Of a stretch of DNA of 64,000 nucleotides, positions 13,180-31,929 are shown in pieces. The notes under the pieces were generated by a model. That model did no database searches and had not been told where the DNA came from. It saw nothing but the letters and a program-made list of their open reading frames with translations. Position 1 is the first letter of the stretch. Every line of letters begins with the position of its first letter. Source of the DNA: Woeseiaceae bacterium (GTDB taxonomy: Bacteria > Pseudomonadota > Gammaproteobacteria > Steroidobacterales > Woeseiaceae); the NCBI GenBank assembly GCA_041579335.1, contig JBFGFX010000001.1, positions 150 to 64,149 on the forward strand. The letters run 5' to 3'. A program made the position numbers and the translations under genes.

Positions 13180-13202
13180 TCACGTTGGGAGATCCGTAGA
13201 AC

Positions 13203-14556: not shown

Positions 14557-14634
14557 TACGCACCGCCACAATGACAATGGCCTGAGCCTGCTGGTCTGCA
14601 TCGGTTGCCAAAGTCATATCGTTGCAGTCGCCGC

Positions 14635-16998: not shown

Positions 16999-17056
16999 GC
17001 AGCGGTCGCCTACCAGACTTAGGCCAAGCTCAACATTAAACGTCGGGATCCCGACC

Positions 17057-18001: not shown

Positions 18002-18027
18002 TCGACAAAATCCCCCGACCAACGCGC

Positions 18028-18058
18028 GAAGAAGCCGGCCTTGCGCCGGCTTCTTTGT
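18028..18058 (+). terminator. rho-independent terminator
   Basis: aagaagccggc (18029-18039) pairs perfectly with gccggcttctt (18045-18055) around the loop cttgc, followed by TTTGTG. Confidence 0.75.
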
Positions 18059-18103
18059 GCCTTGTCCCCTAATGACCGCATCTACATACAAACGTCGTGC
18101 TCG

Positions 18104-18117
18104 TGTCCCTTGCGGGT
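18104..18117 (+). promoter_or_regulatory. conserved 14-mer TGTCCCTTGCGGGT, copy 2, 59 nt upstream of ATG 18177
   Basis: Identical to 16985-16998 and located after the terminator at 18028-18058. A shorter echo TGTCCCCTAATG sits at 18063-18074 (compare CCCTAATGTCCC at 16979-16990). Confidence 0.5.
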
Positions 18118-18176
18118 AGCCGACTCCGACATCAGGCTGCATTCGAGACGAAAACAGCGATGTAGGAGAATTCGAC

Positions 18177-19019
18177 ATGCGTGGACGAATGACAAAAACT
18201 GGTCCGTTGGCGGCGGCAGGTGCGATGATCGTCTTCCTCGCTACACCCGCATTCGCCGACCACAAGGGGAATCATCCTCCGTCCGGCGGAGACGGCGGCA
18301 AAAAAGTCGCGTTGCCCGATAGCGGTCAGGCCGACATCACATCGGAGCACGACGAGGTCTATGTTGACGGCGAGGGCGGTATCCTCGCAGTTTTCGACGG
18401 CGGCGGCGCGCCCGAGTTTGCGACGGCTTCCAAATTGCCGAAAAAAAACCTGGGCTCGATACGCAAGATCGTTGTGAGCGCCCGAGACGCAGACGGTTTC
18501 TGCGATCCCGGTGGCGCTTTCGACGACGTGTGTGCAGGCGGTTTCTATTTCGGCGGCGCCAGGCTTGCGAGCTTCAATACCCGCTGTAACGACCTGAACA
18601 TCCCGATCAGCGGGCCGTGCGATATGGATCAGATGGCCGTGGGCGACTCAAGAAAGTTTCGACTGTCGATCGTCCCCGACTTCGAAAACGGTTTCAGCTC
18701 GATTTTTCGTCTTCGCTTCGGCGCGGCGTGCAAAGACTCAACGGGGAGTACACTGGTCTTCCCGGCAAGCATGGCGGACGCGACGCCCGCGATGATCGTG
18801 GTGAGCGGAAATCCCGACGACCCGCAGGGCAAGCTGTGGCGGTTCGATTCGTCCACCATTCGGACGAACGTCGATCCGATTACGGAGTTGCCGGCCGGAC
18901 CCAATTACAACGCCTGGCTCTGCCGGGAAGTGCAGACGGGTCACGGACAGAATCGGACCTGGGAGGTGTCATCGCGACGGGTACTCGTCGACTTCACCTG
19001 GGAGATCTGGGACAAGTAG
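18177..19019 (+). CDS. secreted Cys-rich hypothetical protein
   Basis: Track ORF of 280 aa with AGGAG upstream and signal peptide MRGRMTKTGPLAAAGAMIVFLATPAFA. The mature part has 6 Cys. I recognise no domain. Confidence 0.65.
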   Translation: MRGRMTKTGPLAAAGAMIVFLATPAFADHKGNHPPSGGDGGKKVALPDSGQADITSEHDEVYVDGEGGILAVFDGGGAPEFATASKLPKKNLGSIRKIVVSARDADGFCDPGGAFDDVCAGGFYFGGARLASFNTRCNDLNIPISGPCDMDQMAVGDSRKFRLSIVPDFENGFSSIFRLRFGAACKDSTGSTLVFPASMADATPAMIVVSGNPDDPQGKLWRFDSSTIRTNVDPITELPAGPNYNAWLCREVQTGHGQNRTWEVSSRRVLVDFTWEIWDK

Positions 19020-19032
19020 CGACACGAAGCGA

Positions 19033-19060
19033 GACATTTCGCAATAGCGGGCGAAATGTC
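19033..19060. terminator. 10-bp perfect hairpin between convergent genes, a possible bidirectional terminator
   Basis: gacatttcgc (19033-19042) pairs with gcgaaatgtc (19051-19060) around an 8-nt loop. There is no U-tract. Confidence 0.45.
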
Positions 19061-19072
19061 CCCAGTGCCCGC

Positions 19073-19933
19073 TCAGTACAAGAGCTCCGCCCAGCGCCCG
19101 TCCTCGACGAGCTTGGCTTTGCGCTGCTGCCAGACTTCCTTCGAGCCGGCTAAGCGCGAGAAGAGCTCGTCGAGCTCGTCGCGGACGTTCTCGAGTCCCG
19201 CTAAGTAGACGTAGGTCTTGTCGTCCGACAGCATTTCCATGATCTCTTCCGAGCGCGTCTCCAGACAGTATTCCCAGGCGATCGGATCGGCCCAGTGGGG
19301 ACGCGGGGATACGGCTTTGAAGGCTTCGAACGTCTCTTCGTCGTAATACTGGGCGAAGTCGTCGCGATGCTCGTTCATGTAGACGTGCTCGAGCCCGACG
19401 TGGGCGCCGTAGAATAGCCGCACCTTACCGCGCCAGTCGCCAACGTCCTTGTAAATGTGTTTGACGAGGGCGCGGAACGGCGCAATGCCGGTGCCGCTGC
19501 CGATCAGTATCAGGTTGGCGTCTTTGTCTTTGGGCACCTCGAACGCATAGCCGTAGGGCCCCGTGATCTCGATGTGGTTGCCGGGCTTCAAGTCGCAGAG
19601 GTAGTTCGAGGAGATGCCGTCGTAGCGTTCGCCGCTGTATTCGTCGATGTAGCTGCAGCGCCGGACCGCGATCGTAATGCGTGGTTTGCCGGTTTCCGTG
19701 CGCGATTGGGTGTCTGCCACGGTGTATAGCCGGAAATGGTGTTCGTGGCCGAGATCGTGTGGTCCGGGGATGACGACGCCGATGCTCTGACCGGGCCGAT
19801 AATCGAATGCCGCACGGTCCACCTCCAGCACGAGCTCGCGCACGTCGGCCTCGGCTTCATCCGGCGTGATACGGCTGCTCGATAGCACGGTCGCGTCGAA
19901 GCGTTCGCTCTTGTCGTAGTCGTCGAGCCTCAT
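19073..19933 (-). CDS. plant-type ferredoxin-NADP(+) reductase (FNR)
   Basis: Track ORF of 286 aa. It has the FAD motif HFRLYTVAD (RLYSIAS-type), the NADP motif LILIGSGTGIAPFRA, and a C-terminal ...WAELLY ending in Tyr. An ATGA overlap links it to the upstream small ORF. Confidence 0.85.
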   Translation of the reverse strand: MRLDDYDKSERFDATVLSSSRITPDEAEADVRELVLEVDRAAFDYRPGQSIGVVIPGPHDLGHEHHFRLYTVADTQSRTETGKPRITIAVRRCSYIDEYSGERYDGISSNYLCDLKPGNHIEITGPYGYAFEVPKDKDANLILIGSGTGIAPFRALVKHIYKDVGDWRGKVRLFYGAHVGLEHVYMNEHRDDFAQYYDEETFEAFKAVSPRPHWADPIAWEYCLETRSEEIMEMLSDDKTYVYLAGLENVRDELDELFSRLAGSKEVWQQRKAKLVEDGRWAELLY

Positions 19934-20139
19934 GCGTCACTCTCCCTTTGATCGATGTACTTTGAATTTGGGTCTTCATTACAGCGGCTGGCGCACCCGC
20001 AGCGCCCGCACTCGCTGCGCCCGGCCAAGGCATCGCCGTCGGTCGAAGGGAATTGCCGGCGCCACGCGTGCTGCACGGCTACCCATCCGAGCAGCAGCAG
20101 CGGCGGCAACGACAGCGCCAGAAGGTAGTGCTTCAGCAT
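19930..20139 (-). CDS. small membrane protein with a Cys cluster (one TM helix plus CGRCGCASRC)
   Basis: Track ORF of 69 aa: MLKHYLLALSLPPLLLLGWVAVQ ... SECGRCGCASRCNED. It is wedged between rnfA (2-nt gap) and FNR (4-nt overlap). Confidence 0.6.
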   Translation of the reverse strand: MLKHYLLALSLPPLLLLGWVAVQHAWRRQFPSTDGDALAGRSECGRCGCASRCNEDPNSKYIDQRESDA

Positions 20140-20141
20140 GC

Positions 20142-20723
20142 CTACGCTCCCAGCCCGGCGAAGCCCATGAACGTCAGCGACAGTACGCCGGCGACCATCA
20201 GCGCGATCGCGGTTCCTTTGGCGACGTCGGGCATCGTGGCAAGCTCGAGCTTCTCGCGGATGCCTGCCATCAGGATCAATGCCACGGCGAATCCGATCCC
20301 GGCACCGAGGGCGTAGATGAGCGCCTGTGGGAAATCGTATTCTTTGTTGGTCTGGAACAGAGCCAGACCCAGGATTGCGCAGTTCGTCGTGATCAGCGGC
20401 AGGAAAATACCGAGCGCGCGGAACAGCGCGGGGCTCACTTTCTTGATGAACATCTCGACCAGCTGCACCGTCGAGGCGATGACGACGATGAACGCGATGA
20501 GCTCCAGGAACGGCGCGCCGATCGCGATCAGCAGGTGATGGATCGCGTAGGCGCAGACCGAGCTCACCAGCATGACGAACATGACGGCCCCGCCCATGCG
20601 GGTGGCCGTCGCCATCTTCGCCGAGACGCCCAGGAACGGGCAGATCCCCAAAAAGTACGCCAGCACGAAGTTATTCACGAGCGACGCGTTGACGAAGATC
20701 GACCACAGCGACTGCTCGTTCAC
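20142..20723 (-). CDS. rnfA: Rnf complex subunit A
   Basis: Track ORF 20142..20834, start re-set to GTG 20723 (AGGAGG upstream, GTGA overlap with the rnfE stop). It encodes 193 aa: VNNFVLAYFLGICPFLGVS ... LPLITTNCAILG. Confidence 0.9.
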   Translation of the reverse strand: MNEQSLWSIFVNASLVNNFVLAYFLGICPFLGVSAKMATATRMGGAVMFVMLVSSVCAYAIHHLLIAIGAPFLELIAFIVVIASTVQLVEMFIKKVSPALFRALGIFLPLITTNCAILGLALFQTNKEYDFPQALIYALGAGIGFAVALILMAGIREKLELATMPDVAKGTAIALMVAGVLSLTFMGFAGLGA

Positions 20724-21352
20724 TGGAGCACCTCCTGAAGTCGCGTCTCGCGTCGCTGCTTGAGCCAGTTGATCAGGAGCAGCCAGCCCGCGAGCGTGAA
20801 GAAGCCGCCGCTCGGCAGGATCATCACAATCCAAGGCTCGAAAGCGGCGGGGAACAGCGCCTGGCCGAACAGCGTGCCGTTGCCCAGAATCTCGCGCACG
20901 CCGCCCAAGCAGAAGAGCGCCAGGGTGAAGCCTAAGCCCATGCCGAGACCGTCGAGCATCGCCAAGCGTACGCTGTGCTTCGAGGCGAACGCCTCAGCGC
21001 GGCCGAGTATCAGGCAGTTGACGACGATGAGCGATATGAACGCCCCCAACGCACGATGCAGGTCGACGCTGATCGCCTCGATCGCATAGTCGACGATGGT
21101 CACGAACGTGGCGATGATCAGAATGTACGTCGCAATGCGGACCTGCTTCGGGATGAAGTCGCGCAACACGGAAACGAGGGTGTTCGACATGAACATCACG
21201 AACGTCGTCGCGAGGCCCATCGCGATGCCGTTCTCGGCCGAGTTCGTCACCGCGAGCACCGGGCACATGCCGAGCACCTGCACGAACACGGGGTTCTCGC
21301 GCCATACGCCCTTTAAGAACTCGTCCCGCGGATTCGGCTCAGTTGCCTGCAT
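20720..21352 (-). CDS. rnfE: Rnf complex subunit E
   Basis: Track ORF 20720..21718, start re-set to MQATEPNPRDEFLKGVWRENPVFVQVLGMCPVLAVT (ATG 21352). It encodes 210 aa with LIVVNCLILGRAEAFA. Confidence 0.9.
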   Translation of the reverse strand: MQATEPNPRDEFLKGVWRENPVFVQVLGMCPVLAVTNSAENGIAMGLATTFVMFMSNTLVSVLRDFIPKQVRIATYILIIATFVTIVDYAIEAISVDLHRALGAFISLIVVNCLILGRAEAFASKHSVRLAMLDGLGMGLGFTLALFCLGGVREILGNGTLFGQALFPAAFEPWIVMILPSGGFFTLAGWLLLINWLKQRRETRLQEVLQ

Positions 21353-22013
21353 CGATCCCTCCCGACTCGAGCTGATGGAGCTCTCTGGCGATGACGGGGA
21401 CCCAAGCCGCGGTGCTGGTCGCAAGGATATTGCCGATCGCCTGCGACGATACGGTCGCGCCCGTGATGCCGTCGATCTGCCAAGCCTCCGTTTTTTTCCC
21501 CGCCTTGACGGTCTCGATCGGATGCGCGAGCGCATCGCCCGTTGCGTCCAGGCCGACGTCGAGCGCCTCGAAGTTGGCGAGGAAATCGGCATCGGACTCG
21601 ATCTTGTCGCCCAAGCCCGGCGTCTCCTTGCTCGCGAGGACTCGCACACCGACGATCGCCTCGCGGGCCGGCGCATATCCGTACAGCAGGCTGATCGTGT
21701 CGGCATAGCCCATGCCACTGGCCTCGACTGCCACGCCGACCAGACGACCGCTGTCGTCGAAACCGGCGTGAACGCGTTCGCCGGCCGGGCCCGTCGCAGG
21801 CTCGAGGCTTCCGTCCGCGGTCAGGGTAAACGTCGCGCGGCGACTCGCATCCGGCAGTACTGCGAACACCGCCCGCTCGAGGAATGCCGCGCGATTGCGC
21901 TCGATGACCGGGAGCGTCCCCTGATACGCGACGGCGATCAGCAGACCGCACAGCATGCCGATGCCCACGAGCGCGCGGTACATAGGCCAGGTCGGCTGCG
22001 CGCCGCTGGTCAC
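21339..22013 (-). CDS. rnfG: Rnf complex subunit G (FMN-binding)
   Basis: Track ORF of 224 aa with an N-terminal TM helix. It has the flavinylation-type motif IDGITGATVSS. A GTGA overlap links it to the rnfD stop. Confidence 0.85.
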   Translation of the reverse strand: MTSGAQPTWPMYRALVGIGMLCGLLIAVAYQGTLPVIERNRAAFLERAVFAVLPDASRRATFTLTADGSLEPATGPAGERVHAGFDDSGRLVGVAVEASGMGYADTISLLYGYAPAREAIVGVRVLASKETPGLGDKIESDADFLANFEALDVGLDATGDALAHPIETVKAGKKTEAWQIDGITGATVSSQAIGNILATSTAAWVPVIARELHQLESGGIDAGN

Positions 22014-23032
22014 GATGACCTCCTTGCGCGCGTGCCGTAAACGCGCGGCTGGATCAGCGAATCGATGTGCGGTGAGACGGCATTGCCGATGAGAATGGCG
22101 TACATCACCCCTTCGGGCATGCCGCCCCAGAGCCGGATCACCACGACGAGAGTGCCGATCAGCACGCCGTAGAGCACGCAGCCTGTACCGGTCATGGGCG
22201 AAGCCACCATGTCCGTCGCCATGAAAACGGCCCCGAGCATCAGGCCCCCGGCGAACAGCATGAACACCGGACTCGGGTATGTTGCGGGGTCGAGCAGGTG
22301 CAAAGCGCCGCTTATCGTAAACACGGACGCAAGAATCGCAATCGGGATGCGCCAGTTCATCATGTTGCGCGCCACGAGATAGGCGCCGCCCAAGAGAATC
22401 AGAAGCGCCGAGGTCTCGCCGGTCGAGCCGGCGGTAAAACCCATCACGAGGTCGTTGACCGCGGTTACGGCACCATCGAACTTCATGGCCGCAAGCGGAG
22501 TGGCCCCGGTCGTCACGTCGTAGGCAGGCGTCGCGAACGGAAACGCCAGCGTCGAGGCCGGTAGCGTCGTGAAGCGATCGGCGCCGAGTGATGGATACCA
22601 GGTGGTCATCGCGACCGGGAAAGCGGCAGCGAGAAACGCCCGCGCCACCAGCGCCGGGTTGAATGCGTTGTAGCCCAGACCTCCGAACATGAACTTACCG
22701 ACCCCCACGCCGACGGCGCCGCCGACCACGACCATCCAGACGGGCAACCCCGGCGGCAGCGTGAGCCCGTATAGGAGCCCCGTGATGACGACGGACCAGT
22801 CGCGCAGGGTCGTCGCTTTGCCGTTCAGGCGGCACAGAAGGTGCTCGGTCGCGACGCAGCTCGCCGTCGCTGCAGTCAACGTCACCAAGGCCGCGAGCCC
22901 GAACGCGTAGACGGCAAACACGCATACCGGAATGAGCGCGTAGACGACGTTGCGCATGATGTGCTCGACGCTTAAGCCGCTCGCGATATGCGGCGAGGTA
23001 TGGATCTCGAGCGTCGTGCTTCGCGTCGTCAT
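22010..23032 (-). CDS. rnfD: Rnf complex subunit D
   Basis: Track ORF 22010..23860, start re-set to MTTRSTTLEIHTSPHI (ATG 23032). It is a 340-aa polytopic membrane protein with DVTTGATPLAAMK (SGAT-type FMN site). Confidence 0.9.
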   Translation of the reverse strand: MTTRSTTLEIHTSPHIASGLSVEHIMRNVVYALIPVCVFAVYAFGLAALVTLTAATASCVATEHLLCRLNGKATTLRDWSVVITGLLYGLTLPPGLPVWMVVVGGAVGVGVGKFMFGGLGYNAFNPALVARAFLAAAFPVAMTTWYPSLGADRFTTLPASTLAFPFATPAYDVTTGATPLAAMKFDGAVTAVNDLVMGFTAGSTGETSALLILLGGAYLVARNMMNWRIPIAILASVFTISGALHLLDPATYPSPVFMLFAGGLMLGAVFMATDMVASPMTGTGCVLYGVLIGTLVVVIRLWGGMPEGVMYAILIGNAVSPHIDSLIQPRVYGTRARRSS

Positions 23033-24369
23033 CAGGCGACCCTCCGCTTGCGGACAATCGCTTTGGACTGGCGGAAGCGCTGAACGAGCGGAATATTCGA
23101 CGGACAGACGTAGGCGCAGGAGCCGCACTCGAAACAGTCCAGGAGATGGAACTCGTCGGCCATGCGCTCGTAACAGGCGTTCTTTGCAAGGATCCCTAGC
23201 ATCGCCGGATTTAGAAAAACCGGGCAGGCATCGACGCAATACGCGCAGCGAATGCAGGCGTACTCGCGCCGTGCTTCGCCGGTCTCGGCCGCCGTGAACG
23301 CGACGAAGCCCGAGGTGCCTTTGGTGATCGGGATGTCGAGGCTCGACAGCGCCTGGCCCATCATCGGCCCGCCCAGGAACACGCGGCTGATGTCGTCGCT
23401 GGCGGAGGCCTGCTCGAGCGCGAAACCGAGCGGCGTGCCGATCGGGATACGGTAGTTGCCTTTGCGCCGAATCGCCGGGCCCGTGATGGTGACCACGCGT
23501 TCCTGGATGCCTCGCCCGTACGGTAAGAGCCTGCCGATTTCGGCCGCGGTGGCGACGTTGACGACGACGATGCCGACGTCGATCGGCAGCCCGCCCGACG
23601 GTACCTCGGCGCCCGTGAGCGCCGTGATCAGCATCTTCTCGGCGCCCTGCGGGTATTTCACCTTCAGGACTTCGATGTCTACGGGCAGGTCGGTTGGAGC
23701 GGCGGCGCGCAGCGCGCCGGCCGCGTCGAGCTTGTTCGCCTCGACGCCGATGAGCGCGCGATTCGCGCCGGTCGCTTTGAGCAAATAGCGGATGCCTTTG
23801 TGAACGTCCGCCGCCTGTTCCAGCATCACGCGATGGTCCGTCGTCAAATACGGCTCGCATTCGATGCCGTTCAAGATGAGGACATCGATCGATTTGCCGT
23901 CGGGTGGCCTGAGCTTGACGTGGGTCGGAAACGCGGCGCCGCCCAGGCCCACGATCCCGGCGGCCTGTATCGCCGCGACGATCTCGTCCGGCGTTGCGCC
24001 GTCGGGCTCGCAGGGCTCACCGTCGATCGCCTCCTGGGACGAGCCCGGATGCGGCTCGAGATAGATGCCGGGCACCATCTTGCCCACGATGCTCGGAACC
24101 AGCCCGATCCGGCGCACGACCCCCGAGGCCGGCGCATGCTGCGGCACCGAGACGAATCCGTCCGCTCTCGCGATGAGCTGGCCGCGGCGCACCTCTTCTC
24201 CCTCCCGCACGACCGCGACGGACGGATTACCGAAATGCTGCGCCAGCGGGATCACGAGCACCGGCGCGAACGGGAACTGCCGGATGCTCGAGCTGCGCGT
24301 ATCGTCCTTGGAGTCCGGCGGATGAATGCCGTGGCGGAAGCTCGGGTAGCGTTTCAACCAGTCCGTCAT
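23032..24369 (-). CDS. rnfC: Rnf complex subunit C (NADH/FMN-binding, 2x[4Fe-4S])
   Basis: Track ORF 23032..24714, start re-set to MTDWLKRYPSFRHGIHPP (ATG 24369). It encodes 445 aa with GIVGLGGAAFPTHVKL, NGIECEPYLT, CIRCAYCVDACP and CFECGSCAYVCP. Confidence 0.9.
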   Translation of the reverse strand: MTDWLKRYPSFRHGIHPPDSKDDTRSSSIRQFPFAPVLVIPLAQHFGNPSVAVVREGEEVRRGQLIARADGFVSVPQHAPASGVVRRIGLVPSIVGKMVPGIYLEPHPGSSQEAIDGEPCEPDGATPDEIVAAIQAAGIVGLGGAAFPTHVKLRPPDGKSIDVLILNGIECEPYLTTDHRVMLEQAADVHKGIRYLLKATGANRALIGVEANKLDAAGALRAAAPTDLPVDIEVLKVKYPQGAEKMLITALTGAEVPSGGLPIDVGIVVVNVATAAEIGRLLPYGRGIQERVVTITGPAIRRKGNYRIPIGTPLGFALEQASASDDISRVFLGGPMMGQALSSLDIPITKGTSGFVAFTAAETGEARREYACIRCAYCVDACPVFLNPAMLGILAKNACYERMADEFHLLDCFECGSCAYVCPSNIPLVQRFRQSKAIVRKRRVA

Positions 24370-24370
24370 C

Positions 24371-27300
24371 TCAATTGAACTTGCTGCCGCGCGCAATCCA
24401 TTTGCCGATGTCTTTCGCCGACCTGTCGCGCGGCAGCCCCGGGTGGATGACCTGCGCCGTGCACTTTTCCGCGGCTCTGACGAGGTCGCTGTACGGTCCT
24501 GCATTCGGATCCTTGATGAACGCTTTCTTGTCCTCGTTGTACTCGAAGACGCTGGAGTTGATCTTGATGCACTCGTCGCACGAGGTGCAGTCGTCGGTAT
24601 CGAGCCACGGCGCCATGTAGTCGCCGGCCTCCTGTTGCGCCGGCTCGGTCGGCGCGACCGCCGGCGATGCCGCTGCTGGCGATGCCGCTGCTGGCGCGGG
24701 GACCGCCGCTTCACCGCCGACCATCCGCGCGAGTACCTCCGCCATTCGTTGCGCCACGTCTTGACGCACGCGTGCCTCGATCTCGGGTATAGACGGTGCG
24801 CTCTTGCGCACGCCGCCGAGCGCGCGCAGCATCGTCCAGAAGTCGCGCCGGTCTTCGCAGGATTCGACCATCGATCGATCGACCAGCAGGCGGCTCAAGT
24901 GATTCTTACGGTCGACCGTCCAGATGAACGGAAACCGATCCTCGCGCTCGCTCTCGTCCAGCTCGAGGAACTCGTGAAGCGGCACCATCTTCTCGTTCCA
25001 GCTATCGGGCGGTGCCATGCGGAAGTGCTTGCGGAAGCGCGTCTCTGTGATCGCGAAGTCGGCGAACGTCAGCGGCAGCTCCATGGTCTTCTCGCGCGAC
25101 CCCTGTCGGTAGGTCAGCGTGTACGTCGGCCAGTCCGCGTCCATAGCCGGGTTTCCCGAAAGATCGAAGCACTCGTCGGCCGTCGTGCCCCCGTCCGGGT
25201 CGTACTTGAACAACGGATAGGCGCGCGACTCGACGGCGAGCTTGGCCTGCTGCTCGCTCATGTCGTCGCCGATGCCGTGCTCGGGCTGACAGGACGTGTA
25301 CAGATTGAACAGCGCCGGACGACGCGCGAGCAGGCCTTCGATAAACCCTTCGATCATATGGCTCGCGTAGGCGATCGTGCTCTGCAGCACGTAGGTCGTG
25401 CGGTGCGCCATGCCGATGAGTCCGATCTCCTTGCGGACCTCCTCTTTGCCCTGGATCGCCTTGCCGAACTGCGCCATGTCGGAGACCTGGCCGAAGAACC
25501 CCGAGGTGCACGCCTGGCCGCCGGTATTCGAGTAGACCTGCGTATCGACGACGACGCACTTGATCGGTTTGCCCGACATCATGAGCCGCGAGAGGTTCTG
25601 GAAGCCGATGTCGTACATTGCGCCGTCGCCGCCGACCGCGACCACGGGCGGACACAGCTTGAATTCCTCGTCCGTGAACTGCCGCCAGTCGAAATAGGTG
25701 AAGAACTCGTCGTGCACCGACGGCCGGTATTCGCCGGTGAGCTCGAGCTCGGCTAGGCGTATCGTTTTGAAGCCCTCGGCCATTTTCGCCATGTGGCCCT
25801 CGAACACCCCCATCGCCAGCGACGGCGCGTCCTGGAACAGGTGATTCGCCCACGGGAATGGATACGGGTTGAACGGATACGTGCTGCCCCATACCGACGT
25901 GCAGCCGGTCGCGTTCAGCATCCCCATGCGTGCTCGCCCCTGTCCGGTCGTACCCTCGACGTAGCGCCACTTGAGCTTCTCGAGATCGCCGATAAGGCCG
26001 GTCATGCGTTTCAGCCATCCGGGATCGATCGGCTGCGAACCCTTGTCGTGCTCGATGCGATCCGCGATGCCGGCTAGCGTGACGTCGGCGTCGCCTAAGT
26101 CTTCGACGATGCTCGCAATCTCCGCCGTGTCGCTCAGGTCGATTTCGCCGACGAGCTTTGCCTGCACGTTCTTCTTCAGCCGGTCGACCAGGCCGTCGAG
26201 TTTTTCGACGTGCGCCGCTATGCGCGGCTGCATCAGTGCCTCGACGGTCGCGACGAACAGATGGATGACGGTCTTTTCCGCACACCCGAGGCAGGCGCCG
26301 TCGCCGCTCGCGAACGACAAATAGTTGTCCTTGTCGAGCAGCAGCGTCTCGAGCGCCCCGATCCGCTCCTCGAGATCGTCCACGCGGATGTATTTCTTCG
26401 GCGTATTCGGCAGGTCCAGCCAGAAGTCCCATTTGTGACGGAGGGCATCGATGGACTCGGCGGTCTGAGGCACCGGTTTCAGGGCGTCGTCGTCGCAGAC
26501 GGCGACGCATTCCATGCAGCCCTTGCAGGTGTAAGGATCGACCGTGATCGACAGCAGCCCGCCGGAGCCCTTCTCACGTTTCTCCGGCAGCGTGTAGTAG
26601 GGGCGGGACAGGGCAAATTGAAAGCCGTCGAGCTCTTCTGTGAAGCGGCCGAATTCCTCGGTGAGCGCCGCGCGGCTGTCGGCGTCGCTCGCGGCGATCG
26701 TTTGCTCGATCGCCTCTTCGATCAGGCCGGCGACCGAATCGGTCTCGCTAGCCGCGCTCATTCCCGCGCGGAGATACTGCTCCATCTGGCGCACGGCACG
26801 CGGCAGGTGTTCGACCGAAGCGCCGTTCTTCTTCACCCGCTTGACGACGGTGTCGAGGACCTGGCCGACGTCGTTGACGAGGCCAGGTATTGCGGTGTCG
26901 GGGCAGACGGTATAGCAGTTGCCGCAGGCCGTGCAGTTTTCCGCGTTCCACTCCGGATGTTCGAAACGAATGCCGGTCATGTCGCGATACAGCGAGGAAA
27001 CGGCCGGCATGACCCCCAGCCCGATGAATGGATCGGTGAGGTTGTCGTTGCCCATGCCGCGCGCGTAGAAGTTGCCGGTCTGCTCCCAGAATCGATGGAT
27101 GTCGGACGCGCTCGACCGGCTCTGGGGCAGGCGCTTGACCATGATCGGCACGGGCGGCTCGGGCGGCACTGCCGAGGCGCGGCTTTCTTTCAGCGTGAAC
27201 GGCTTGTCGCGAATCTCCTCCACCTCGTCGAAGCCGCGCCTGACCACGCGCATGTTGTCTTCGACGACCCGCGCGCCCTTGGCGCCGAACTTGTGCTCGA

Positions 27301-29296
27301 GCTGCGCACGGATGGCTTTGAGCAGGGTCGGCTCATCGAGTTTCGCCTGCTCGAGGACCGGAGATGCGGCGAAGAACGCGCCCTGAAACGCGACGCCCTG
27401 CATGCGAAGCTGAAGCTCCGGATCGGTGGCCTCGTCGCGCGCGATGCGGAACGCGTCCAAGAAGAACACGCGGATGTCCTTCTCGACGATAATCTGTTGG
27501 AACGCGACCGGTATCGATTCCCAGACCTCGTCAGCGCTGCCCAGGTCGCTCTGGATGATGAACACGCCGCCGTCTTTCAAACCCGCGATCGCATTCGTGT
27601 GGTTGAACACGTTCGGATCGGGCGATAGCACCACGTCGACGTAATAGTATTCACAGTTGACTTTGATGGGCTCGGATGACGCGGAGAGGTAGAAGGTCGT
27701 CGGCTGGCCTTTTTTCTCCGAGCCATACTTCGGGTTCGCCTTGATGTGAAAGTCCAACAGATCGAACAGCGTCATCGCGAGGTTTTTGCCAGTCGTGATC
27801 GCGCCCCAGCCGCCGACCGAATGGAAGCGCACGGTGATGCTGTCCTCCGGCATCAGGTTCGGATTCTCGCTGCCGCGAATCGCGAGCTCCCGCACGTCGG
27901 GATACGCATCCTCGATCGTCTGCTGGTAGATTTCCTGCTTCGGCGTGAACGGCTTTTTGCGCAGGAAGTCGATCGAGAGGTAGAAGAGCTTCTTGCGCGG
28001 CCCGTCCGGTAGCATGTTCTCGACCGCGCCGATCAGTCCTTCGGGCTGCAGGTCGCGGCTGCCCATGCCGAACGATCCGGAATAGAGGGGCGGCGCGTCC
28101 TTCAAGCTCGAATACGTTTCGAGCTCGGGATGAGGCGTCGCGTTCTTGTCCCGACCGTTCTCCAAGGACTTGGCCACGGTGGCGCGGATCTCGCGCATCA
28201 ACGGCAGGTCGCCGGCCAGCGGCTGGTCCAAGCGTTCGAGCACGGCGACGCCTTTTCTGCCCTTTAGAATCTCTGCCAGTAAGTCGGCGGGGAACGGACG
28301 AAACATCGTGACATCGACGACGCCGACTTTGAGCTTTCTGGACTTGCGCAGGTAGTCGGCGACGACCTCGGCGCTCGGAATCATGCTGCCCTGACCGACG
28401 ATCAAATAGTCGGCATCGTCGGCACGATAGGTGCTGATACGCGCGTAGCGGCGGCCGGTTAGCGCCGCAAATTCCTCGAAGGCGCGGTCGGCAATCTCCT
28501 TGACGTGGTCGTAGAAGAACGGCCGCTGAGCCGCGACGCTCTGCATGTAGGCATCCTGGTTCTCGACGATGCCCGACATGACCGGGTTGTCGACGTCCCA
28601 GAGCTCCGGAATTCGGCGCCGGGTCGGGCCGTAGATGATCCGCTGCGCCGGCGTCGGCGTGTCGATGATGTCGTCCGGTCGACCGAGGAACTCCGCGATG
28701 AGCTCGCGCTCGGGGACCATAAGCGATTCGATCAGGTGCGTCGTCAGGAATCCATCCTGTGCGATCGCCCCCGGCGTCAGGGCCAGCTCGGCGATGCGGT
28801 GAGCGATTATGTTGAGATCGGCGGCGCCCTGCGCGTTCGTCGCGAAAAGCTGGAAGAACCCGGTGTCGTCGATGCAGTGGTAGTCGTCGTGCCCGGCATG
28901 CACGTTCAGCGTCGACTTGGTCATCGCGCGGGCGCCGATGTTGAGGACGTAGGTCAGCCGTTTGCCGGCGGCCGCGTACAGCGACTCGTGCATGTACGCG
29001 ATGCCCTGTCCCGACGAGAAGTTGCTGGCCCGGAGCCCGGTCATCGACATGCCAGCGGTGACCGCGGCCGCGGCGTGCTCGCCCTCGGGCTCGATGAATA
29101 TCAGCGGCCGGCCGGAGACGTTGACGTGGCCTGCGGCTGCGGCTTCCGCCCAGTACTCCCCCATCTGCGTCGACGGCGTGATCGGATAGGCGCCGGCCGC
29201 GTCACTCGCTTCGCGCTCGCAGGCGATGACCGCGGTATTGCCGTCCATCGCGGCGCGCGTGCCCGGGTACTTCACCGGCTTCTCAGACTTCCACAT
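24371..29296 (-). CDS. pyruvate:ferredoxin (flavodoxin) oxidoreductase-type 2-oxoacid oxidoreductase, 1641 aa, with a C-terminal linker plus ferredoxin-like module
   Basis: Track ORF 24371..29530, start re-set to MWKSEKPVKYPG (ATG 29296, GAAGGAAG upstream). Canonical PFOR motifs present are YPITPSTQMGE, CTACGNCYTVCP, CKGCMECVAVCDDD, GDGACLGCAEK, NATGCTSVWG and the TPP motif GGDGAMYDIGFQNL...VVDTQVYSNTGGQ. The C-terminus is an Ala/Pro linker followed by CTSCDEC...EKCT. Confidence 0.9.
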   Translation of the reverse strand: MWKSEKPVKYPGTRAAMDGNTAVIACEREASDAAGAYPITPSTQMGEYWAEAAAAGHVNVSGRPLIFIEPEGEHAAAAVTAGMSMTGLRASNFSSGQGIAYMHESLYAAAGKRLTYVLNIGARAMTKSTLNVHAGHDDYHCIDDTGFFQLFATNAQGAADLNIIAHRIAELALTPGAIAQDGFLTTHLIESLMVPERELIAEFLGRPDDIIDTPTPAQRIIYGPTRRRIPELWDVDNPVMSGIVENQDAYMQSVAAQRPFFYDHVKEIADRAFEEFAALTGRRYARISTYRADDADYLIVGQGSMIPSAEVVADYLRKSRKLKVGVVDVTMFRPFPADLLAEILKGRKGVAVLERLDQPLAGDLPLMREIRATVAKSLENGRDKNATPHPELETYSSLKDAPPLYSGSFGMGSRDLQPEGLIGAVENMLPDGPRKKLFYLSIDFLRKKPFTPKQEIYQQTIEDAYPDVRELAIRGSENPNLMPEDSITVRFHSVGGWGAITTGKNLAMTLFDLLDFHIKANPKYGSEKKGQPTTFYLSASSEPIKVNCEYYYVDVVLSPDPNVFNHTNAIAGLKDGGVFIIQSDLGSADEVWESIPVAFQQIIVEKDIRVFFLDAFRIARDEATDPELQLRMQGVAFQGAFFAASPVLEQAKLDEPTLLKAIRAQLEHKFGAKGARVVEDNMRVVRRGFDEVEEIRDKPFTLKESRASAVPPEPPVPIMVKRLPQSRSSASDIHRFWEQTGNFYARGMGNDNLTDPFIGLGVMPAVSSLYRDMTGIRFEHPEWNAENCTACGNCYTVCPDTAIPGLVNDVGQVLDTVVKRVKKNGASVEHLPRAVRQMEQYLRAGMSAASETDSVAGLIEEAIEQTIAASDADSRAALTEEFGRFTEELDGFQFALSRPYYTLPEKREKGSGGLLSITVDPYTCKGCMECVAVCDDDALKPVPQTAESIDALRHKWDFWLDLPNTPKKYIRVDDLEERIGALETLLLDKDNYLSFASGDGACLGCAEKTVIHLFVATVEALMQPRIAAHVEKLDGLVDRLKKNVQAKLVGEIDLSDTAEIASIVEDLGDADVTLAGIADRIEHDKGSQPIDPGWLKRMTGLIGDLEKLKWRYVEGTTGQGRARMGMLNATGCTSVWGSTYPFNPYPFPWANHLFQDAPSLAMGVFEGHMAKMAEGFKTIRLAELELTGEYRPSVHDEFFTYFDWRQFTDEEFKLCPPVVAVGGDGAMYDIGFQNLSRLMMSGKPIKCVVVDTQVYSNTGGQACTSGFFGQVSDMAQFGKAIQGKEEVRKEIGLIGMAHRTTYVLQSTIAYASHMIEGFIEGLLARRPALFNLYTSCQPEHGIGDDMSEQQAKLAVESRAYPLFKYDPDGGTTADECFDLSGNPAMDADWPTYTLTYRQGSREKTMELPLTFADFAITETRFRKHFRMAPPDSWNEKMVPLHEFLELDESEREDRFPFIWTVDRKNHLSRLLVDRSMVESCEDRRDFWTMLRALGGVRKSAPSIPEIEARVRQDVAQRMAEVLARMVGGEAAVPAPAAASPAAASPAVAPTEPAQQEAGDYMAPWLDTDDCTSCDECIKINSSVFEYNEDKKAFIKDPNAGPYSDLVRAAEKCTAQVIHPGLPRDRSAKDIGKWIARGSKFN
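24663..24692 (-). repeat. perfect 15-bp tandem duplication (ggcgatgccgctgct x2) inside the PFOR Ala/Pro linker
   Basis: Read directly: 24663-24677 equals 24678-24692. It encodes the repeated AASPA units of the linker PAAASPAAASPA. Confidence 0.9.
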
Positions 29297-29307
29297 CGAA
29301 TCTTCCT

Positions 29308-30171
29308 TCAAGTCGCCGCGGCGGGTCGCGCCGAGCGGCGTGAAACCGCGCTCGCCTCGTCGCCTTTGACCACCGTTCCGTCCGGCTCGAGCCACACGAT
29401 CGCCCCGGTTGGGCAGCGCGCGATCGGCGTCTTCGTCGCATGCGGGCGGCGGTAGTCGACGACGGCCAGGTTGTTCTCGATCGTGATCAGCCCCGGTGCG
29501 TCCATCGCGCATTTGCCGCAGGCAGTGCACGCGACCTCGCAGTCCTCGAGGATCTCGTCGCCTTTCTCCAGGTTCTTACAGGCGACCCACAGCCGGTGGC
29601 TCTTCGGATGCAGGCTGAACAGGTCCTTCGGGCAAATTTCGACGCAGTCGTTGCAGGCCGTGCAGAGATCCTCGTCGACGACGGGGAGCGAATACCGATT
29701 CATCGTGATGGCGTCGAAATCACAGACCTCCTCGCAGTCGCCCAGGCCCAAGCATCCCCAGAAACAGCTCTTGCCCCCGCCCGCGACCAGGGCGGCGGAG
29801 CGGCAGCTCCGATGCCCGGTGTAGCGGGCACGATTTCGCGCCACGTTGATGCCGCCAGCGCAGGCCAGCCGGGCGACCTCGCGTTCGCCGGCGCCGACGT
29901 CGACCCCGAGGAATGCGGCAACGGCCTCGCGCTCGGCATCGCCGGACACCGTGCACTGTCCGGGGACGGCCTCGCTCGTGACCAGTGCCTCGGCGAACGC
30001 CCGGCAGCCCGGAAAGCCGCAGGCGCCGCAGTTCGTGCCCGGCAGCATCGCTTCGACGTCGTCGAAGCGCGCATCTTCGAAGACGTAGAGCTTGCGATTA
30101 GCAACGACGAGGCCCGTCGCGAGCAGCAGGGTGAGCGCGCCGAGGGCGCCGATCGCAGTGAGGATAATCAC
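29308..30171 (-). CDS. rnfB: Rnf complex subunit B-like polyferredoxin
   Basis: Track ORF of 287 aa with a GTG start. It has an N-terminal TM helix, the RnfB-type motif GTNCGACGFPGCRAFAEAL, and further clusters CTACNDCVEICP and CTACGKCAMDAP. Confidence 0.85.
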   Translation of the reverse strand: MIILTAIGALGALTLLLATGLVVANRKLYVFEDARFDDVEAMLPGTNCGACGFPGCRAFAEALVTSEAVPGQCTVSGDAEREAVAAFLGVDVGAGEREVARLACAGGINVARNRARYTGHRSCRSAALVAGGGKSCFWGCLGLGDCEEVCDFDAITMNRYSLPVVDEDLCTACNDCVEICPKDLFSLHPKSHRLWVACKNLEKGDEILEDCEVACTACGKCAMDAPGLITIENNLAVVDYRRPHATKTPIARCPTGAIVWLEPDGTVVKGDEASAVSRRSARPAAAT

Positions 30172-30370
30172 TTAGCCGCCCCGGACCGCTCGCGGGGCAG
30201 AGCGGCCTCCGTCGTTCGTCTGTGTCCACCCGAATCGCATCCAGCCTCACCTCGCTCGGCCGACTGTTGCACAAAGCTCATAGCCGATCTGTAGGGGAAT
30301 ACCGAGGCGGGATTGCGAGGTGCGAAATGGAAGAATGAGCGTCCGCAACAAGCGCCTCGGAGCATCGGCA

Positions 30371-31033
30371 ATGCGGTCCCTCCTCATCGTTTGCGCAGCC
30401 GGGCTGCTGCCCCTGGCAGCGGCCGGTGACGCGTCAGAGCGCGTGCCACTGCCCGAGCCCGACCTCGACGGTGACCAGGTGGTCGAGCGGTCGCTCGCGG
30501 AGCGGCGATCCGTTCGTGATTTCGCGAACGCGAGCCTGTCTTTGGCCGACGTGTCGCAAATCCTCTGGGCCGGGCAGGGCATCACGCATCGCCGCGGCTA
30601 CCGGACCGCCCCCTCGGCCGGCGGCCTTTATCCGTTGGAGCTCTACGTCGTTGCGGGGGCCGTGGATGGCCTCACGCCGGGCGTGTATCGCTATCGGCCG
30701 GAGCGGCACGAGCTCATTCGCGTCGCGAGTGGCGATCGCCGCAGACGGCTCGCGGCGGCCGCGCTCGACCAGCGTTGGGTCCGGCGGGCGCCGGCGGTGC
30801 TCGCGATCACGGTGGTCTACGAGCGGACGGAAGCGAAATACGGGGCACGCGGCCGCCGTTACGTGCATGTCGAGGTCGGCCACGCGGCGCAGAACGTGTA
30901 CCTCCAGGCCGGGGCCCGCGGCCTGGGCACCGTCATCGTGGGTGCTTTTCGTGACGCGGAGGTTGCGAGCGCGCTCGAGCTTCCAGCGGACCACCGACCG
31001 CTCGCGCTGATGCCGCTCGGTCGCAGACGCTAG
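30371..31033 (+). CDS. SagB/ThcOx-type nitroreductase-fold dehydrogenase with a signal-peptide-like N-terminus
   Basis: Track ORF 30320..31033; ATG 30371 gives MRSLLIVCAAGLLPLAAAGDA (30320 is also possible). RRSVRDF, APSAGGLYPLELYVV and HVEVGHAAQNVYLQA are typical of the family. Confidence 0.75.
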   Translation: MRSLLIVCAAGLLPLAAAGDASERVPLPEPDLDGDQVVERSLAERRSVRDFANASLSLADVSQILWAGQGITHRRGYRTAPSAGGLYPLELYVVAGAVDGLTPGVYRYRPERHELIRVASGDRRRRLAAAALDQRWVRRAPAVLAITVVYERTEAKYGARGRRYVHVEVGHAAQNVYLQAGARGLGTVIVGAFRDAEVASALELPADHRPLALMPLGRRR

Positions 31034-31929
31034 GTCGCCTCGGCAAGCCGCAGCACGGTCCGTCCGAGCCCATCGGTCAGCTCGGCCAGCCGCCGATAGT
31101 CGACGTGGATCGCCAGATCGGCGGGCGTGTGGTAGTACGGGTAGCGGTAGAACGCGGTGTCGGTCACCATCAGGGCGCGATAGCCTCGGCGCCAGAACGA
31201 GTATTGATCGCTCCAGGCAACGCCGGGGATCCAGGAGAACGTCGCGACACGTTCCATCGGAAAGTCCGTTTGCTGCCGAAATACCGCCGCAAAACGGTTC
31301 AGCGCGCGGCGCGATCGCAGGTTGGATACGAACGCGATGTAATTCCCCCGGTCCGGGAAGAAATGCCGAAACAGGGGCGGATAACGCTGACTGCCCTTGC
31401 GATCGTCGTAGTAGCCGAGCGTCTCCAAAGACACCATCAGCGTGATGTCGTCGCCGCGCGCCTTTGCGGCATTCGCATACACCGTGCTGCCCATCCGCTC
31501 GGTCATGAAAAAGGGCGGTTCTTCGTTGACGAAAGCGACGAAGCGGACGGTCCGGTCGGTAGAGCGGTCGGCGATCTCGCGAGACAACTCGAGCAGAGAA
31601 GCGACGCCGCTGCCGTTGTCGTTCGCGCCGGGACTGCCGATCACGGAATCGTAATGGGCGCCGATCAGCAGGATTTCGTCCGGCAGCCGCGAGCCGATTC
31701 GGCTGCAGGCGAGATTCGAGCAGGCGATCGAATCGACGTCGTAGGTCTGCCGGGCCACTTCGTAGCCGATTTCACGCCACTGGTCGTCGATGTAGTCGGC
31801 GGCCTTGGCGAGCGCCTGCGGCCGGTACACGTTGCGCTCGCCGATGACCTCCGCGAGCGTGCGGACGTGCCGCTCCAGCCGGGCGGCGAGATCGTCCGCG
31901 GTCACAGCGCTGCGTTCGGATGTGGTCAT
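31030..31929 (-). CDS. M28 family metallopeptidase
   Basis: Track ORF of 299 aa. LLIGAHYDSVIGSPGANDNGSGVASLLELSR is the M28 zinc-ligand region. A 4-nt overlap links it to the upstream NhaC gene. Confidence 0.85.
   Translation of the reverse strand: MTTSERSAVTADDLAARLERHVRTLAEVIGERNVYRPQALAKAADYIDDQWREIGYEVARQTYDVDSIACSNLACSRIGSRLPDEILLIGAHYDSVIGSPGANDNGSGVASLLELSREIADRSTDRTVRFVAFVNEEPPFFMTERMGSTVYANAAKARGDDITLMVSLETLGYYDDRKGSQRYPPLFRHFFPDRGNYIAFVSNLRSRRALNRFAAVFRQQTDFPMERVATFSWIPGVAWSDQYSFWRRGYRALMVTDTAFYRYPYYHTPADLAIHVDYRRLAELTDGLGRTVLRLAEAT

Follow-up and report, generated by a model that had tools for sequence, protein, structure and literature searches.

A long pyruvate:ferredoxin oxidoreductase with a tethered ferredoxin domain, encoded inside a clostridial-type rnf operon with a ferredoxin-NADP+ reductase gene, in a Woeseiaceae bacterium and at least seven phyla

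Pyruvate:ferredoxin oxidoreductase (PFOR) and Rnf, the ion-translocating ferredoxin:NAD+ oxidoreductase, figure in textbooks as enzymes of strict anaerobes; the Rnf of aerobes has been known chiefly for running in reverse to supply nitrogenase with electrons, or as Rsx, which reduces SoxR. In the chain that leads from PFOR through a free ferredoxin to Rnf in Acetobacterium woodii, Clostridium tetanomorphum, Thermotoga maritima and Prevotella/Bacteroides, the PFOR has about 1170-1230 residues and is encoded elsewhere, and the ferredoxin is diffusible. We describe here a nine-gene operon of a Woeseiaceae bacterium (minus strand, positions 19073-30171 of a stretch of 64,000 nucleotides, hereafter the window, corresponding to positions 150 to 64,149 of contig JBFGFX010000001.1, assembly GCA_041579335.1) that has the enzymes for the same three catalytic steps and the clostridial/Bacteroides gene order rnfCDGEA(B). 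In contrast to the chain of the anaerobes, however, its PFOR of about 1640 residues carries a tethered ferredoxin domain and is encoded inside the rnf operon, which also includes genes for a ferredoxin-NADP+ reductase (FNR) and a small Cys-rich membrane protein. These features are what is new with respect to the known chain, together with the largely respiring nature of the hosts, which include Gammaproteobacteria, Bacteroidota, Myxococcota and Acidobacteriota, several of the cultured ones being described as aerobes.

A PFOR module is also coupled to a flavoprotein of the FNR superfamily, yielding NADPH, in the pyruvate:NADP+ oxidoreductase (PNO) of Euglena and Cryptosporidium and in the YdbK-flavodoxin-Fpr system of Escherichia coli. 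PNO, however, is a single chain fused to a cytochrome-P450-reductase-like domain binding flavin mononucleotide (FMN) and flavin adenine dinucleotide (FAD), whereas in the present operon a plant-type FNR of two domains is encoded on its own, electrons are carried by a tethered [4Fe-4S] ferredoxin domain and the second outlet is an ion pump in the membrane; with no flavodoxin-like or cytochrome-P450-reductase domain in the PFOR and FNR encoded by its own gene, the locus lies outside the PNO family. The operon of the Na+-translocating NADH:quinone oxidoreductase (Na+-NQR; nqrABCDEF-apbE-nqrM) has a parallel order, in which an FNR-superfamily gene comes after the homologues of rnfC, D, G, E and A, and it also encodes a small single-helix membrane protein with four Cys residues, NqrM; the four Cys ligands of its intramembrane [2Fe-2S] centre (PMC12174285) are conserved in RnfA and RnfE of the present locus. 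Unlike NqrF, the FNR found here has no [2Fe-2S] domain and is nearer to plant FNR (130-155 bits) than to NqrF (54-57 bits). The presence of RnfB, which is kept, and the lack of an NqrF-type ferredoxin domain place the locus outside the Na+-NQR operons as well.

Rnf is likewise tied to a ferredoxin process in respiring Gammaproteobacteria in the case of the nif-linked Rnf1 of Azotobacter vinelandii and of the rnf genes linked to the reductive tricarboxylic acid (rTCA) cycle, the latter being co-located, as in the cluster presented here, with genes for 2-oxoacid:ferredoxin oxidoreductases (PMC12174285; 10.1101/363564). In contrast to the present cluster, the available text of these sources describes them as of the rnfABCDGE(H) type with a short RnfB, reads them as reverse-running and mentions neither a PFOR between the rnf genes nor an FNR or a tethered ferredoxin. 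The initial annotation of the window had named no described rnf order with a substrate oxidoreductase between rnfB and rnfC or an FNR at the 3' end, and a full-text literature search, whose coverage leaves out most subscription journals, indeed returned no description of a PFOR inside an rnf cluster: the accessible text of a study on Woeseiales reports Rnf transcripts only and no such cluster (PMC7451513), that of a 2025 review on RNF and NQR contains no such cluster either (PMC12174285) and methanotroph papers, in the text available, refer to nif-linked rnf genes (including PMC13108547 and PMC7154130).

The nine open reading frames (ORFs) of the minus-strand block run head to tail, without internal stops between the assigned start and stop codons, and all except the one for 69 residues match the expected family in Pfam and NCBIfam. 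In the order of the operon (rnfB, PFOR, rnfC, rnfD, rnfG, rnfE, rnfA, 69-residue ORF, FNR), they are:

29308-30171, minus strand: rnfB, 287 residues, with an N-terminal membrane helix, an FeS domain (PF04060) and a polyferredoxin part; long clostridial type
24371-29296, minus strand: long PFOR-like 2-oxoacid:ferredoxin oxidoreductase, 1641 residues; Pfam POR_N, PFOR_II, POR, Fer4 and TPP_enzyme_C
23032-24369, minus strand: rnfC, 445 residues, with an NADH/FMN module and 2x[4Fe-4S]; TIGR01945 486 bits (cut-off 246)
22010-23032, minus strand: rnfD, 340 residues, with a TGAT covalent-FMN motif ('TTGATPLAA'); TIGR01946 314 bits (cut-off 207)
21339-22013, minus strand: rnfG, 224 residues, with FMN_bind (PF04205) and a TGAT motif ('GITGATVSS'); TIGR01947 91.7 bits (cut-off 102)
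20720-21352, minus strand: rnfE, 210 residues, with Cys30 and Cys113; TIGR01948 250.6 bits (cut-off 213.4)
20142-20723, minus strand: rnfA, 193 residues, with Cys28 and Cys115; TIGR01943 235.6 bits (cut-off 229.3)
19930-20139, minus strand: conserved 69-residue protein, with one N-terminal membrane helix followed by D-A-L-A-G-R-x2-C-x2-C-x-C-x3-C
19073-19933, minus strand: plant-type ferredoxin-NADP+ reductase-like flavoprotein (FNR), 286 residues; Pfam FAD_binding_6 and NAD_binding_1

The tight, operon-like packing first described for this block was reproduced from the coordinates at all eight junctions. On recomputation, rnfB and PFOR are separated by 11 nt, PFOR and rnfC by 1 nt, and rnfA and the 69-residue ORF by 2 nt, while the remaining genes overlap: rnfC and rnfD by 1 nt (TGATG), rnfD and rnfG by 4 nt (GTGA), rnfG and rnfE by 14 nt, rnfE and rnfA by 4 nt (GTGA), and the 69-residue ORF and FNR by 4 nt (ATGA). 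The assigned starts lie inside longer maximal ORFs, so that the starts picked correspond to shorter proteins; they agree with the family models, which the products fit from end to end, and with PFOR homologues, which have lengths of 1637-1670 residues and an invariant Met1. A Shine-Dalgarno sequence is recognisable in the strings upstream of seven of the nine starts.

The PFOR combines domains I, II, III, V (2x[4Fe-4S]) and VI (thiamine pyrophosphate, TPP, and the proximal cluster) in one chain. Its score against the NifJ model TIGR02176 (409 bits) falls below the equivalog cut-off of 911 bits and it is longer than canonical PFOR, for which reasons it is filed apart from NifJ; judged by its sequence, it is not a canonical NifJ/Por but belongs, within the 2-oxoacid:ferredoxin oxidoreductase superfamily, to a long subfamily of its own. 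The alignment to solved PFOR structures is piecewise (Moorella 6CIN, 296 bits and about 30% identity in pieces; Desulfovibrio africanus 1B0P, 249 bits), and from the aligned blocks we estimate an insertion of about 120 residues between the two ferredoxin-type cluster motifs of domain V, a second insertion of about 115 residues preceding the TPP domain and a C-terminal extension of about 270 residues beyond canonical PFOR. Thr40 and Arg123 align with the pyruvate-binding Thr and Arg of the Moorella and D. africanus enzymes and are invariant in 13 diverse homologues. Equally invariant in this set are Asn1257 (within VYSNTGGQ), the GDG TPP motif at 1223-1225, Glu1007 and 16 cluster Cys residues, including the proximal-cluster ligands C1002, C1005, C1132 and C1336, the eight Cys residues of domain V (C788-798 and C924-934) and Cys1570, Cys1573, Cys1576 and Cys1612 near the C-terminus. 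The original identification as a PFOR is therefore sound with respect to the domains and catalytic residues, which are kept, but the protein is not an ordinary PFOR, belonging instead to a subfamily of about 1640 residues whose tethered ferredoxin domain had gone unnoticed. That domain and the segment preceding it are encoded as follows:

24620-24718, minus strand: variable Ala/Pro/Gly/Ser-rich linker of the PFOR, about residues 1527-1559; non-conserved in alignments, with AlphaFold predicted local distance difference test (pLDDT) values of 30-43
24374-24619, minus strand: C-terminal single-cluster ferredoxin domain (CxxCxxC...C, Fer4_13, Pfam PF13370), which holds the last four Cys residues named above

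The linker and the CxxCxxC...C domain are present in 76/76 PFOR orthologues, over which the linker consists on average of 64% A/P/E/G/S/T/Q. In an AlphaFold model of the last 257 residues (mean pLDDT 66), a folded domain at 1385-1495 is followed by a helix, the disordered linker and the small domain. When the model was compared with the PDB, the ferredoxin domain matched ferredoxin II of Desulfovibrio gigas (1FXD; template-modelling score 0.66, normalised to the target; 35% identity) as well as the ferredoxins of Pyrococcus furiosus and T. maritima, single-cluster ferredoxins being its sole structural relatives, and the well predicted 1385-1495 domain returned no significant PDB match in the structure search. 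There is no separate ferredoxin gene within the nine-gene operon.

A profile of the 257 C-terminal residues retrieves 1307 clusters at 50% identity with E <= 1e-10, many of which are formed by proteins of about 800-870 residues. In one metagenomic locus (L081, JGI metagenome 3300002231, 7075-14300), genes for a KorA-like protein (629 residues), a KorB-like protein (317 residues) and a protein of 857 residues, P0158, are followed by rnfB and the long PFOR; a korA-korB-adaptor arrangement is likewise seen in L010 (6520-12034) and probably in L011 and L069. P0158 is composed of an N-terminal region of about 360 residues of no known family, a PFOR domain-VI-like region that we judge to be degenerate, the extension, an acidic/Pro-rich linker and a Fer4_13 domain. 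Because korA, korB and P0158, with the same extension, linker and ferredoxin, lie directly upstream of rnfB, the tethered-ferredoxin module seems to be a transferable adaptor that connects 2-oxoacid oxidoreductases to Rnf.

All six Rnf subunits are encoded. RnfA, RnfB (TIGR01944), RnfC, RnfD and RnfE exceed the NCBIfam cut-offs, and RnfG, which scores slightly under that of TIGR01947, contains the Pfam FMN_bind domain; RnfC is built from Complex1_51K and Fer4 domains (Pfam). Among solved structures, RnfB is closest to those of A. woodii (9ERI_B, 199 bits) and C. tetanomorphum (7ZC6_B, 185 bits), with the short RnfB of A. vinelandii (8AHX_B) at 61 bits, and RnfC gives the same ranking (7ZC6_C, 354 bits). 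Against the RsxB-type model NF003475, RnfB scores 75 bits (cut-off 203) and is thus not of the RsxB type. The Cys pairs of RnfA (C28 and C115) and RnfE (C30 and C113) occupy the intramembrane [2Fe-2S] ligand positions of solved Rnf/Nqr structures. The motif definitions for the covalent FMN, the intramembrane [2Fe-2S] centre and the RnfC module are in part drawn from PMC12174285. Subunit-specific models and conserved motifs agree in supporting the rnf gene identities proposed at the outset; the set of Rnf hallmarks is complete and, since RnfB and RnfC are closest to the subunits of the Na+-pumping ferredoxin:NAD+ oxidoreductases of A. woodii and C. tetanomorphum and not to the reverse-running Rnf1 of A. 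vinelandii, the complex is by sequence of the clostridial type, in a bacterium of the Woeseiaceae (Gammaproteobacteria).

For the flavoprotein encoded at the end of the operon, the best NCBIfam matches are PetH and BoxA at about 150 bits (152-155; cut-offs 600-635), and the closest solved structures in the PDB are plant and cyanobacterial FNRs (about 130 bits). The RLY[ST] and GTGIAP motifs are conserved in its orthologues. In plant-type FNR, a C-terminal aromatic residue stacks on the FAD; this plastidic-type feature is found in 56/60 orthologues (Tyr in 52 and Phe in 4), the other four ending in Tyr plus one acidic residue. Ancestry in NqrF was rejected, given that plant FNR and BoxA score far above NqrF; the nqrF model TIGR01941 reaches 57 bits (cut-off 295), and the FAD domain starts the protein, with no [2Fe-2S] domain. 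Fold, motifs and C-terminal aromatic residue all fit the plant-type FNR that had been proposed. Specificity for NADP is likely from the sequence, but is less sure because the residues that contact the 2'-phosphate are only partly in register: of the Ser-Arg...Tyr set, the Ser is kept ('AVSPRP'), the Arg lies one position away and the Tyr has no aligned counterpart.

With few exceptions, related loci encode a counterpart of the 69-residue protein between rnfA and FNR, and this conservation of position and motif identifies the ORF as a real gene. The family shares a layout of a helix, a W..VQ..W stretch and the motif D-(A/V)-L-A-G-R-x2-C-x2-C-x-C-x3-C; an alignment of 28 sequences shows full conservation of C44 and conservation of 90% or more for W19, D36 and C53. 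The protein has no Pfam or NCBIfam match. Homology to NqrM (PF04400) was rejected, with no match at E <= 10 in any of the 28 orthologues and a similarity confined to the architecture, as was homology to RseC, the RseC_MucC family appearing merely at E = 4 in two of the 28. As its architecture and genomic position parallel those of NqrM, which is needed for the intramembrane [2Fe-2S] centre of Na+-NQR according to the available text of PMC12174285, by analogy the protein would most likely help to assemble the membrane part of Rnf or to insert a cluster into it, or be a small subunit of that part.

The long PFOR was used as query against 5.8 billion protein clusters, of which the 120 best matches were examined. 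Besides the self-match at 100%, these are 72-85% identical to the query and 1624-1674 residues long (one partial sequence has 1547), and the names they carry include '2-oxoacid:acceptor oxidoreductase family protein' and 'pyruvate-ferredoxin/flavodoxin oxidoreductase'. A scan of one genome per GTDB species gave no fewer than 584 candidate loci. The 80 best were analysed, and their synteny was evaluated with the nine window proteins as tblastn queries, a locus being counted for a gene only where its DNA reached far enough on the side concerned. In the best 80 loci, the closest named relatives of the PFOR come from Woeseiaceae metagenome-assembled genomes (MAGs; 79-82% identity), and the phyla represented are Pseudomonadota (Woeseiaceae, Haliea and other Pseudomonadales, Methylotuvimicrobium buryatense 5G, M. 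sp. KM1, Chromatiaceae, Lysobacterales and Nitrosomonas), Myxococcota, Acidobacteriota, Bacteroidota (Algoriphagus, Cecembia, Aquiflexum, Hyunsoonleella, Allomuricauda, Phaeodactylibacter, Saprospiraceae and others), Planctomycetota (Aureliella), Calditrichota and Hydrogenedentota. Two further loci, from Persicobacter (Bacteroidota) and Gemmatirosa (Gemmatimonadota), were found in a plasmid collection. The cluster is thus widespread, in at least seven phyla, and not peculiar to this genome.

The long PFOR is accompanied by rnfC in 69/69 loci, rnfD in 67/67, rnfG in 65/65, rnfE in 65/65 and rnfA in 64/64, and by FNR in 59 of the 62 that could be judged. The gene for RnfB adjoins the cluster in all 68 judged loci, 12 others ending at contig boundaries, and takes one of two positions: directly upstream of PFOR in 43 loci (Pseudomonadota, Myxococcota, Acidobacteriota, Planctomycetota, Calditrichota and Hydrogenedentota) or directly after FNR in 25 (Bacteroidota and Methylotuvimicrobium). 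In M. buryatense (L068; NZ_KB455575.1, about 3,901,000-3,912,400), for example, the block runs from PFOR (10001-14905 of the locus) to rnfB (20574-21350). The identity of each PFOR to the window protein correlates with the identities of the individual Rnf subunits and FNR (r = 0.65-0.86), which points to inheritance, or transfer, of the block as a unit. Given this near-obligate synteny across phyla and in two gene orders, we have high confidence, on comparative-genomic grounds, that the nine genes form one inherited functional unit. The synteny search proposed with the 1641-residue PFOR thus gives the predicted coupling of PFOR, Rnf and FNR strong comparative backing, rnf genes flanking the PFOR in every judged locus; of the rnfB-PFOR-rnfC order, the part that places rnfC after PFOR always applies, whereas rnfB is upstream in only one of the two arrangements.

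The Gemmatirosa locus, with a PFOR of 49% identity, keeps rnfB-PFOR-rnfCDG-(1.2 kb)-rnfEA and lacks FNR, suggesting a core of PFOR and Rnf to which FNR and the small protein are very often added. It lies on plasmid 1 of Gemmatirosa kalamazoonensis (NZ_CP007129.1; L083), a replicon of 1.1 Mb, with the stretch of about 1.2 kb between rnfG and rnfE at 17055-18282 and no FNR homologue within 3.5 kb downstream of rnfA; in Persicobacter the cluster is also plasmid-borne (pPP1, L082). In the window, GC content and skews of the cluster are the same as those of the remaining sequence and give no signal of horizontal transfer.

Several other genes recur beside the cluster. Pyruvate phosphate dikinase (PPDK) adjoins it in seven loci (for example L031, 4137-6905) and genes for KorA/KorB-type oxidoreductases do so in about 12. 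In two gammaproteobacterial MAGs without FNR (L070, 19649-23192; L071, 20443-24151), rnfA is followed by genes for proteins of about 790 and 280 residues which, inspected by eye from their N-terminal sequences, look like phosphoenolpyruvate (PEP) synthase (ppsA) and its regulator (ppsR). A gene for an ApbE-family flavin transferase, an enzyme needed for RnfD and RnfG, adjoins the cluster in six loci (for example L052, 7787-9058), but the window has no such gene in the vicinity of its cluster. Directly upstream of PFOR, on the same strand, 21 loci have a gene for a helical protein of about 120-126 residues with no Pfam match. Both inspected examples (L019, 9451-9831; L047, 9511-9873) are Bacteroidota-type loci with rnfB at the far end, and the gene was not found upstream of PFOR in Methylotuvimicrobium (L068 and L028); its product may be a tenth cluster member in Bacteroidota-type loci. 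The survey of neighbours revealed no SoxR-like regulator, stress gene or gene for another electron acceptor conserved beside the cluster.

Tentatively, and with somewhat less than an even chance of being right, we read the operon as a self-contained module for pyruvate and low-potential electrons that works in the oxidative direction. The long PFOR would convert pyruvate and CoA to acetyl-CoA and CO2 by oxidative decarboxylation, with electrons leaving the TPP site through three [4Fe-4S] clusters to reach the ferredoxin domain of the enzyme itself, which would act as a swinging arm on its flexible low-complexity linker and replace free ferredoxin. This domain would feed the polyferredoxin RnfB, the clostridial-type Rnf reducing NAD+ at RnfC and exporting Na+ or H+, and its second outlet would be the soluble plant-type FNR, which would reduce NADP+. 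Pyruvate oxidation would thereby yield NADH, extra ion-motive force and NADPH, so that the module could take the place of pyruvate dehydrogenase while conserving energy, probably under oxygen limitation. A more specific form of the proposal is doubtful as a whole: the PFOR would dock through its swinging ferredoxin domain onto RnfB to form a membrane-associated, ion-pumping pyruvate:NAD+ oxidoreductase, which would function as an energy-conserving pyruvate dehydrogenase, with FNR as an NADPH outlet, the small protein as an Rnf-specific assembly factor or subunit and the adaptor linking KorAB as well; it would be a widespread and overlooked path of pyruvate oxidation among aerobic and facultative members of at least seven phyla.

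A number of points weigh against the oxidative reading. Rnf, PFOR and FNR are all reversible and direction is not readable from sequence. Enzymes that convert pyruvate to PEP lie beside the cluster (PPDK in seven loci, and ppsA and ppsR replacing FNR in two), which fits a gluconeogenic, pyruvate-synthase function. Many of the cultured hosts (Methylotuvimicrobium, Algoriphagus, Cecembia, Hyunsoonleella and Gemmatirosa) are described as aerobes; an aerobe normally possesses pyruvate dehydrogenase, along with a high membrane potential and ample NADH, and under such conditions the Rnf of A. vinelandii runs in reverse. Moreover, the PFOR scores under the equivalog cut-off, so that another small 2-oxoacid is a conceivable substrate, and the FNR alignment shows no conservation in register of Cys272 and Glu312 (spinach numbering), the NADP specificity and catalytic efficiency of this protein being uncertain. 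Part of this evidence would suit operation in reverse, with an ion-motive force built by respiration driving Rnf, NADH reducing the tethered ferredoxin and PFOR acting as pyruvate synthase for anaplerosis or C2 assimilation in aerobes or microaerobes, while FNR adds or buffers reducing power; we regard this as rather unlikely. KorAB-type genes at about 12 loci would complete, with PPDK and Pps, an enzyme set for reductive carboxylation, and the many aerobes among the cultured hosts, along with PPDK and the PEP synthase and regulator in place of FNR, would also be in keeping with it. Precedents are offered by the available text on an rnf cluster inside rTCA genes in tubeworm symbionts and Thioflavicoccus mobilis (10.1101/363564) and on the reverse-running Rnf1 of aerobic A. 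vinelandii (PMC12174285). The PPDK, Pps and Kor neighbours occur, however, in a minority of loci only, and the oxidative direction is favoured over reverse operation because RnfB and RnfC belong to the clostridial, forward-type lineage, which works that way in A. woodii and C. tetanomorphum; because RnfH, tied to the reverse-mode A. vinelandii enzyme in the available text of PMC12174285, is absent; because an FNR in the same operon suits a second sink, yet would short-circuit gradient-driven ferredoxin reduction by draining ferredoxin reduced at the cost of the gradient; and because Methylotuvimicrobium, in which pyruvate is made directly from the ribulose monophosphate and Embden-Meyerhof-Parnas pathways according to the available text of PMC7154130, has no evident need for a pyruvate synthase.

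The operon might also be a hub at which pyruvate, NADH plus the gradient (through reverse Rnf) and NADPH equilibrate with one ferredoxin pool, serving as an energy-linked NADH-to-NADPH transhydrogenase or as a source of reduced ferredoxin for Fe-S repair or defence against oxidative stress, a possibility to which we assign a low probability. Functionally it would resemble E. coli YdbK-flavodoxin-Fpr plus Rsx, the analogues of which (a PFOR homologue, an FNR-class reductase and an Rnf homologue) are all gathered here in one operon; YdbK and Fpr have a role in stress. In the text available from the respective sources, Rsx acts in SoxR reduction (PMC12174285), Woeseiales Rnf transcripts are read as an oxidative-stress response (PMC7451513) and, in the aerobe Methylococcus capsulatus, a putative Rnf complex, encoded by a different rnf cluster, and a ferredoxin were scored essential for methane-dependent growth and discussed in terms of redox homeostasis (PMC13108547). 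On the other hand, a ferredoxin tied to a 1641-residue enzyme is ill suited to dispersed client enzymes, RnfB is not of the RsxB type (75 bits, cut-off 203, for NF003475) and no SoxR-like regulator or stress gene is conserved beside the cluster. Least probable of all, and very improbable in our view, is that the genes are neighbours without direct electron exchange, or that the PFOR uses a different 2-oxoacid and an acceptor unrelated to Rnf: the score under the equivalog cut-off, the large insertions without assigned function and the lack of FNR in three of 62 loci and in Gemmatirosa would be compatible with this, but the 100% linkage of the long PFOR to rnfCDGEA in at least seven phyla and two gene orders, the overlapping start and stop codons along the operon, the conserved pyruvate-binding residues and the lack of any other conserved acceptor gene nearby argue against it.

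The genes that border the operon on its two flanks are read from the other strand; one, of the nitroreductase family, diverges from rnfB, and the other, an unassigned ORF (18177-19019), converges on FNR. Two non-coding features were assigned to these borders:

19033-19060, minus strand: inverted repeat with a perfect 10 bp stem and an 8-nt loop (-26.9 kcal/mol, z = -3.5) and a weak U-tract
30172-30319, strand not assigned: divergent intergenic region between rnfB and the nitroreductase-family gene, a presumed promoter region by inference only

The hairpin, with arms GACATTTCGC-N8-GCGAAATGTC, begins 13 nt past the FNR stop and lies within the 53-nt space separating the convergent stops of FNR and the unassigned ORF. 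Its stability is well beyond chance level, and it is likely the transcript-end hairpin of both the operon and the convergent gene; it may terminate transcription in either direction or be bound by a protein. A consensus scan of 30172-30319 gave no sigma-70 match and no Rfam element was detected there, nor was an FNR/CRP regulator box obvious upstream of rnfB on inspection by eye. Across 18000-31500, no regulatory RNA or riboswitch was found in Rfam at E <= 0.1. The initial annotation had named internal promoters or terminators separating PFOR or FNR from the rnf genes as evidence against a single unit; consensus scans of the block gave no promoter-like sites and nine weak terminator-like sites against 8.4 expected, which shows only a lack of excess. 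On the plus strand, many long antisense ORFs cover the operon between 19930 and 30171 (for example 19932-20738, 24443-25756 and 26210-27628); such ORFs commonly arise at about 64% G+C, and nothing independent supports them.

Elsewhere in the window, a protein of 1207 residues (35345-38968, minus strand) combines a sterile alpha motif, an adenylate/guanylate cyclase domain and an AAA_16 ATPase in an unusual signalling architecture. At 54754-57872 (minus strand) and 51730-52926 (plus strand), a wax-ester synthase/diacylglycerol acyltransferase gene lies next to one for an AMP-binding, acyl-CoA synthetase-like protein, with an acetoacetate-decarboxylase-like protein encoded a few kb away, a combination that hints at neutral-lipid storage metabolism. 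A DUF1501/DUF1800 pair (8524-11622, minus strand) is followed on the opposite strand by a beta-lactamase-family protein (11818-13179), and the large ORFs at 45206-47917, 47952-50216, 53022-54701 and 58782-60080 have no Pfam match at E <= 1e-5.

The occurrence of the cluster in Woeseiaceae and Halieaceae of marine sediment, in Flavobacteriia, Saprospiraceae, Myxococcota and Acidobacteriota, and in the industrial methanotroph M. buryatense would surprise specialists in bacterial bioenergetics. Three unannotated families are defined by this work, the long PFOR, the 857-residue adaptor and the small Cys protein, and genetically tractable hosts exist (e.g. M. buryatense 5GB1C), so that the proposed reading is directly testable. 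The tethered ferredoxin would be a natural example of electron channelling, and the distribution of the cluster implies that low-potential ferredoxin chemistry at the pyruvate node is regular in organisms that are usually modelled with pyruvate dehydrogenase only, which would change estimates of energy yield and redox balance in metabolic models of abundant sediment and wastewater bacteria and for methanotroph production strains.

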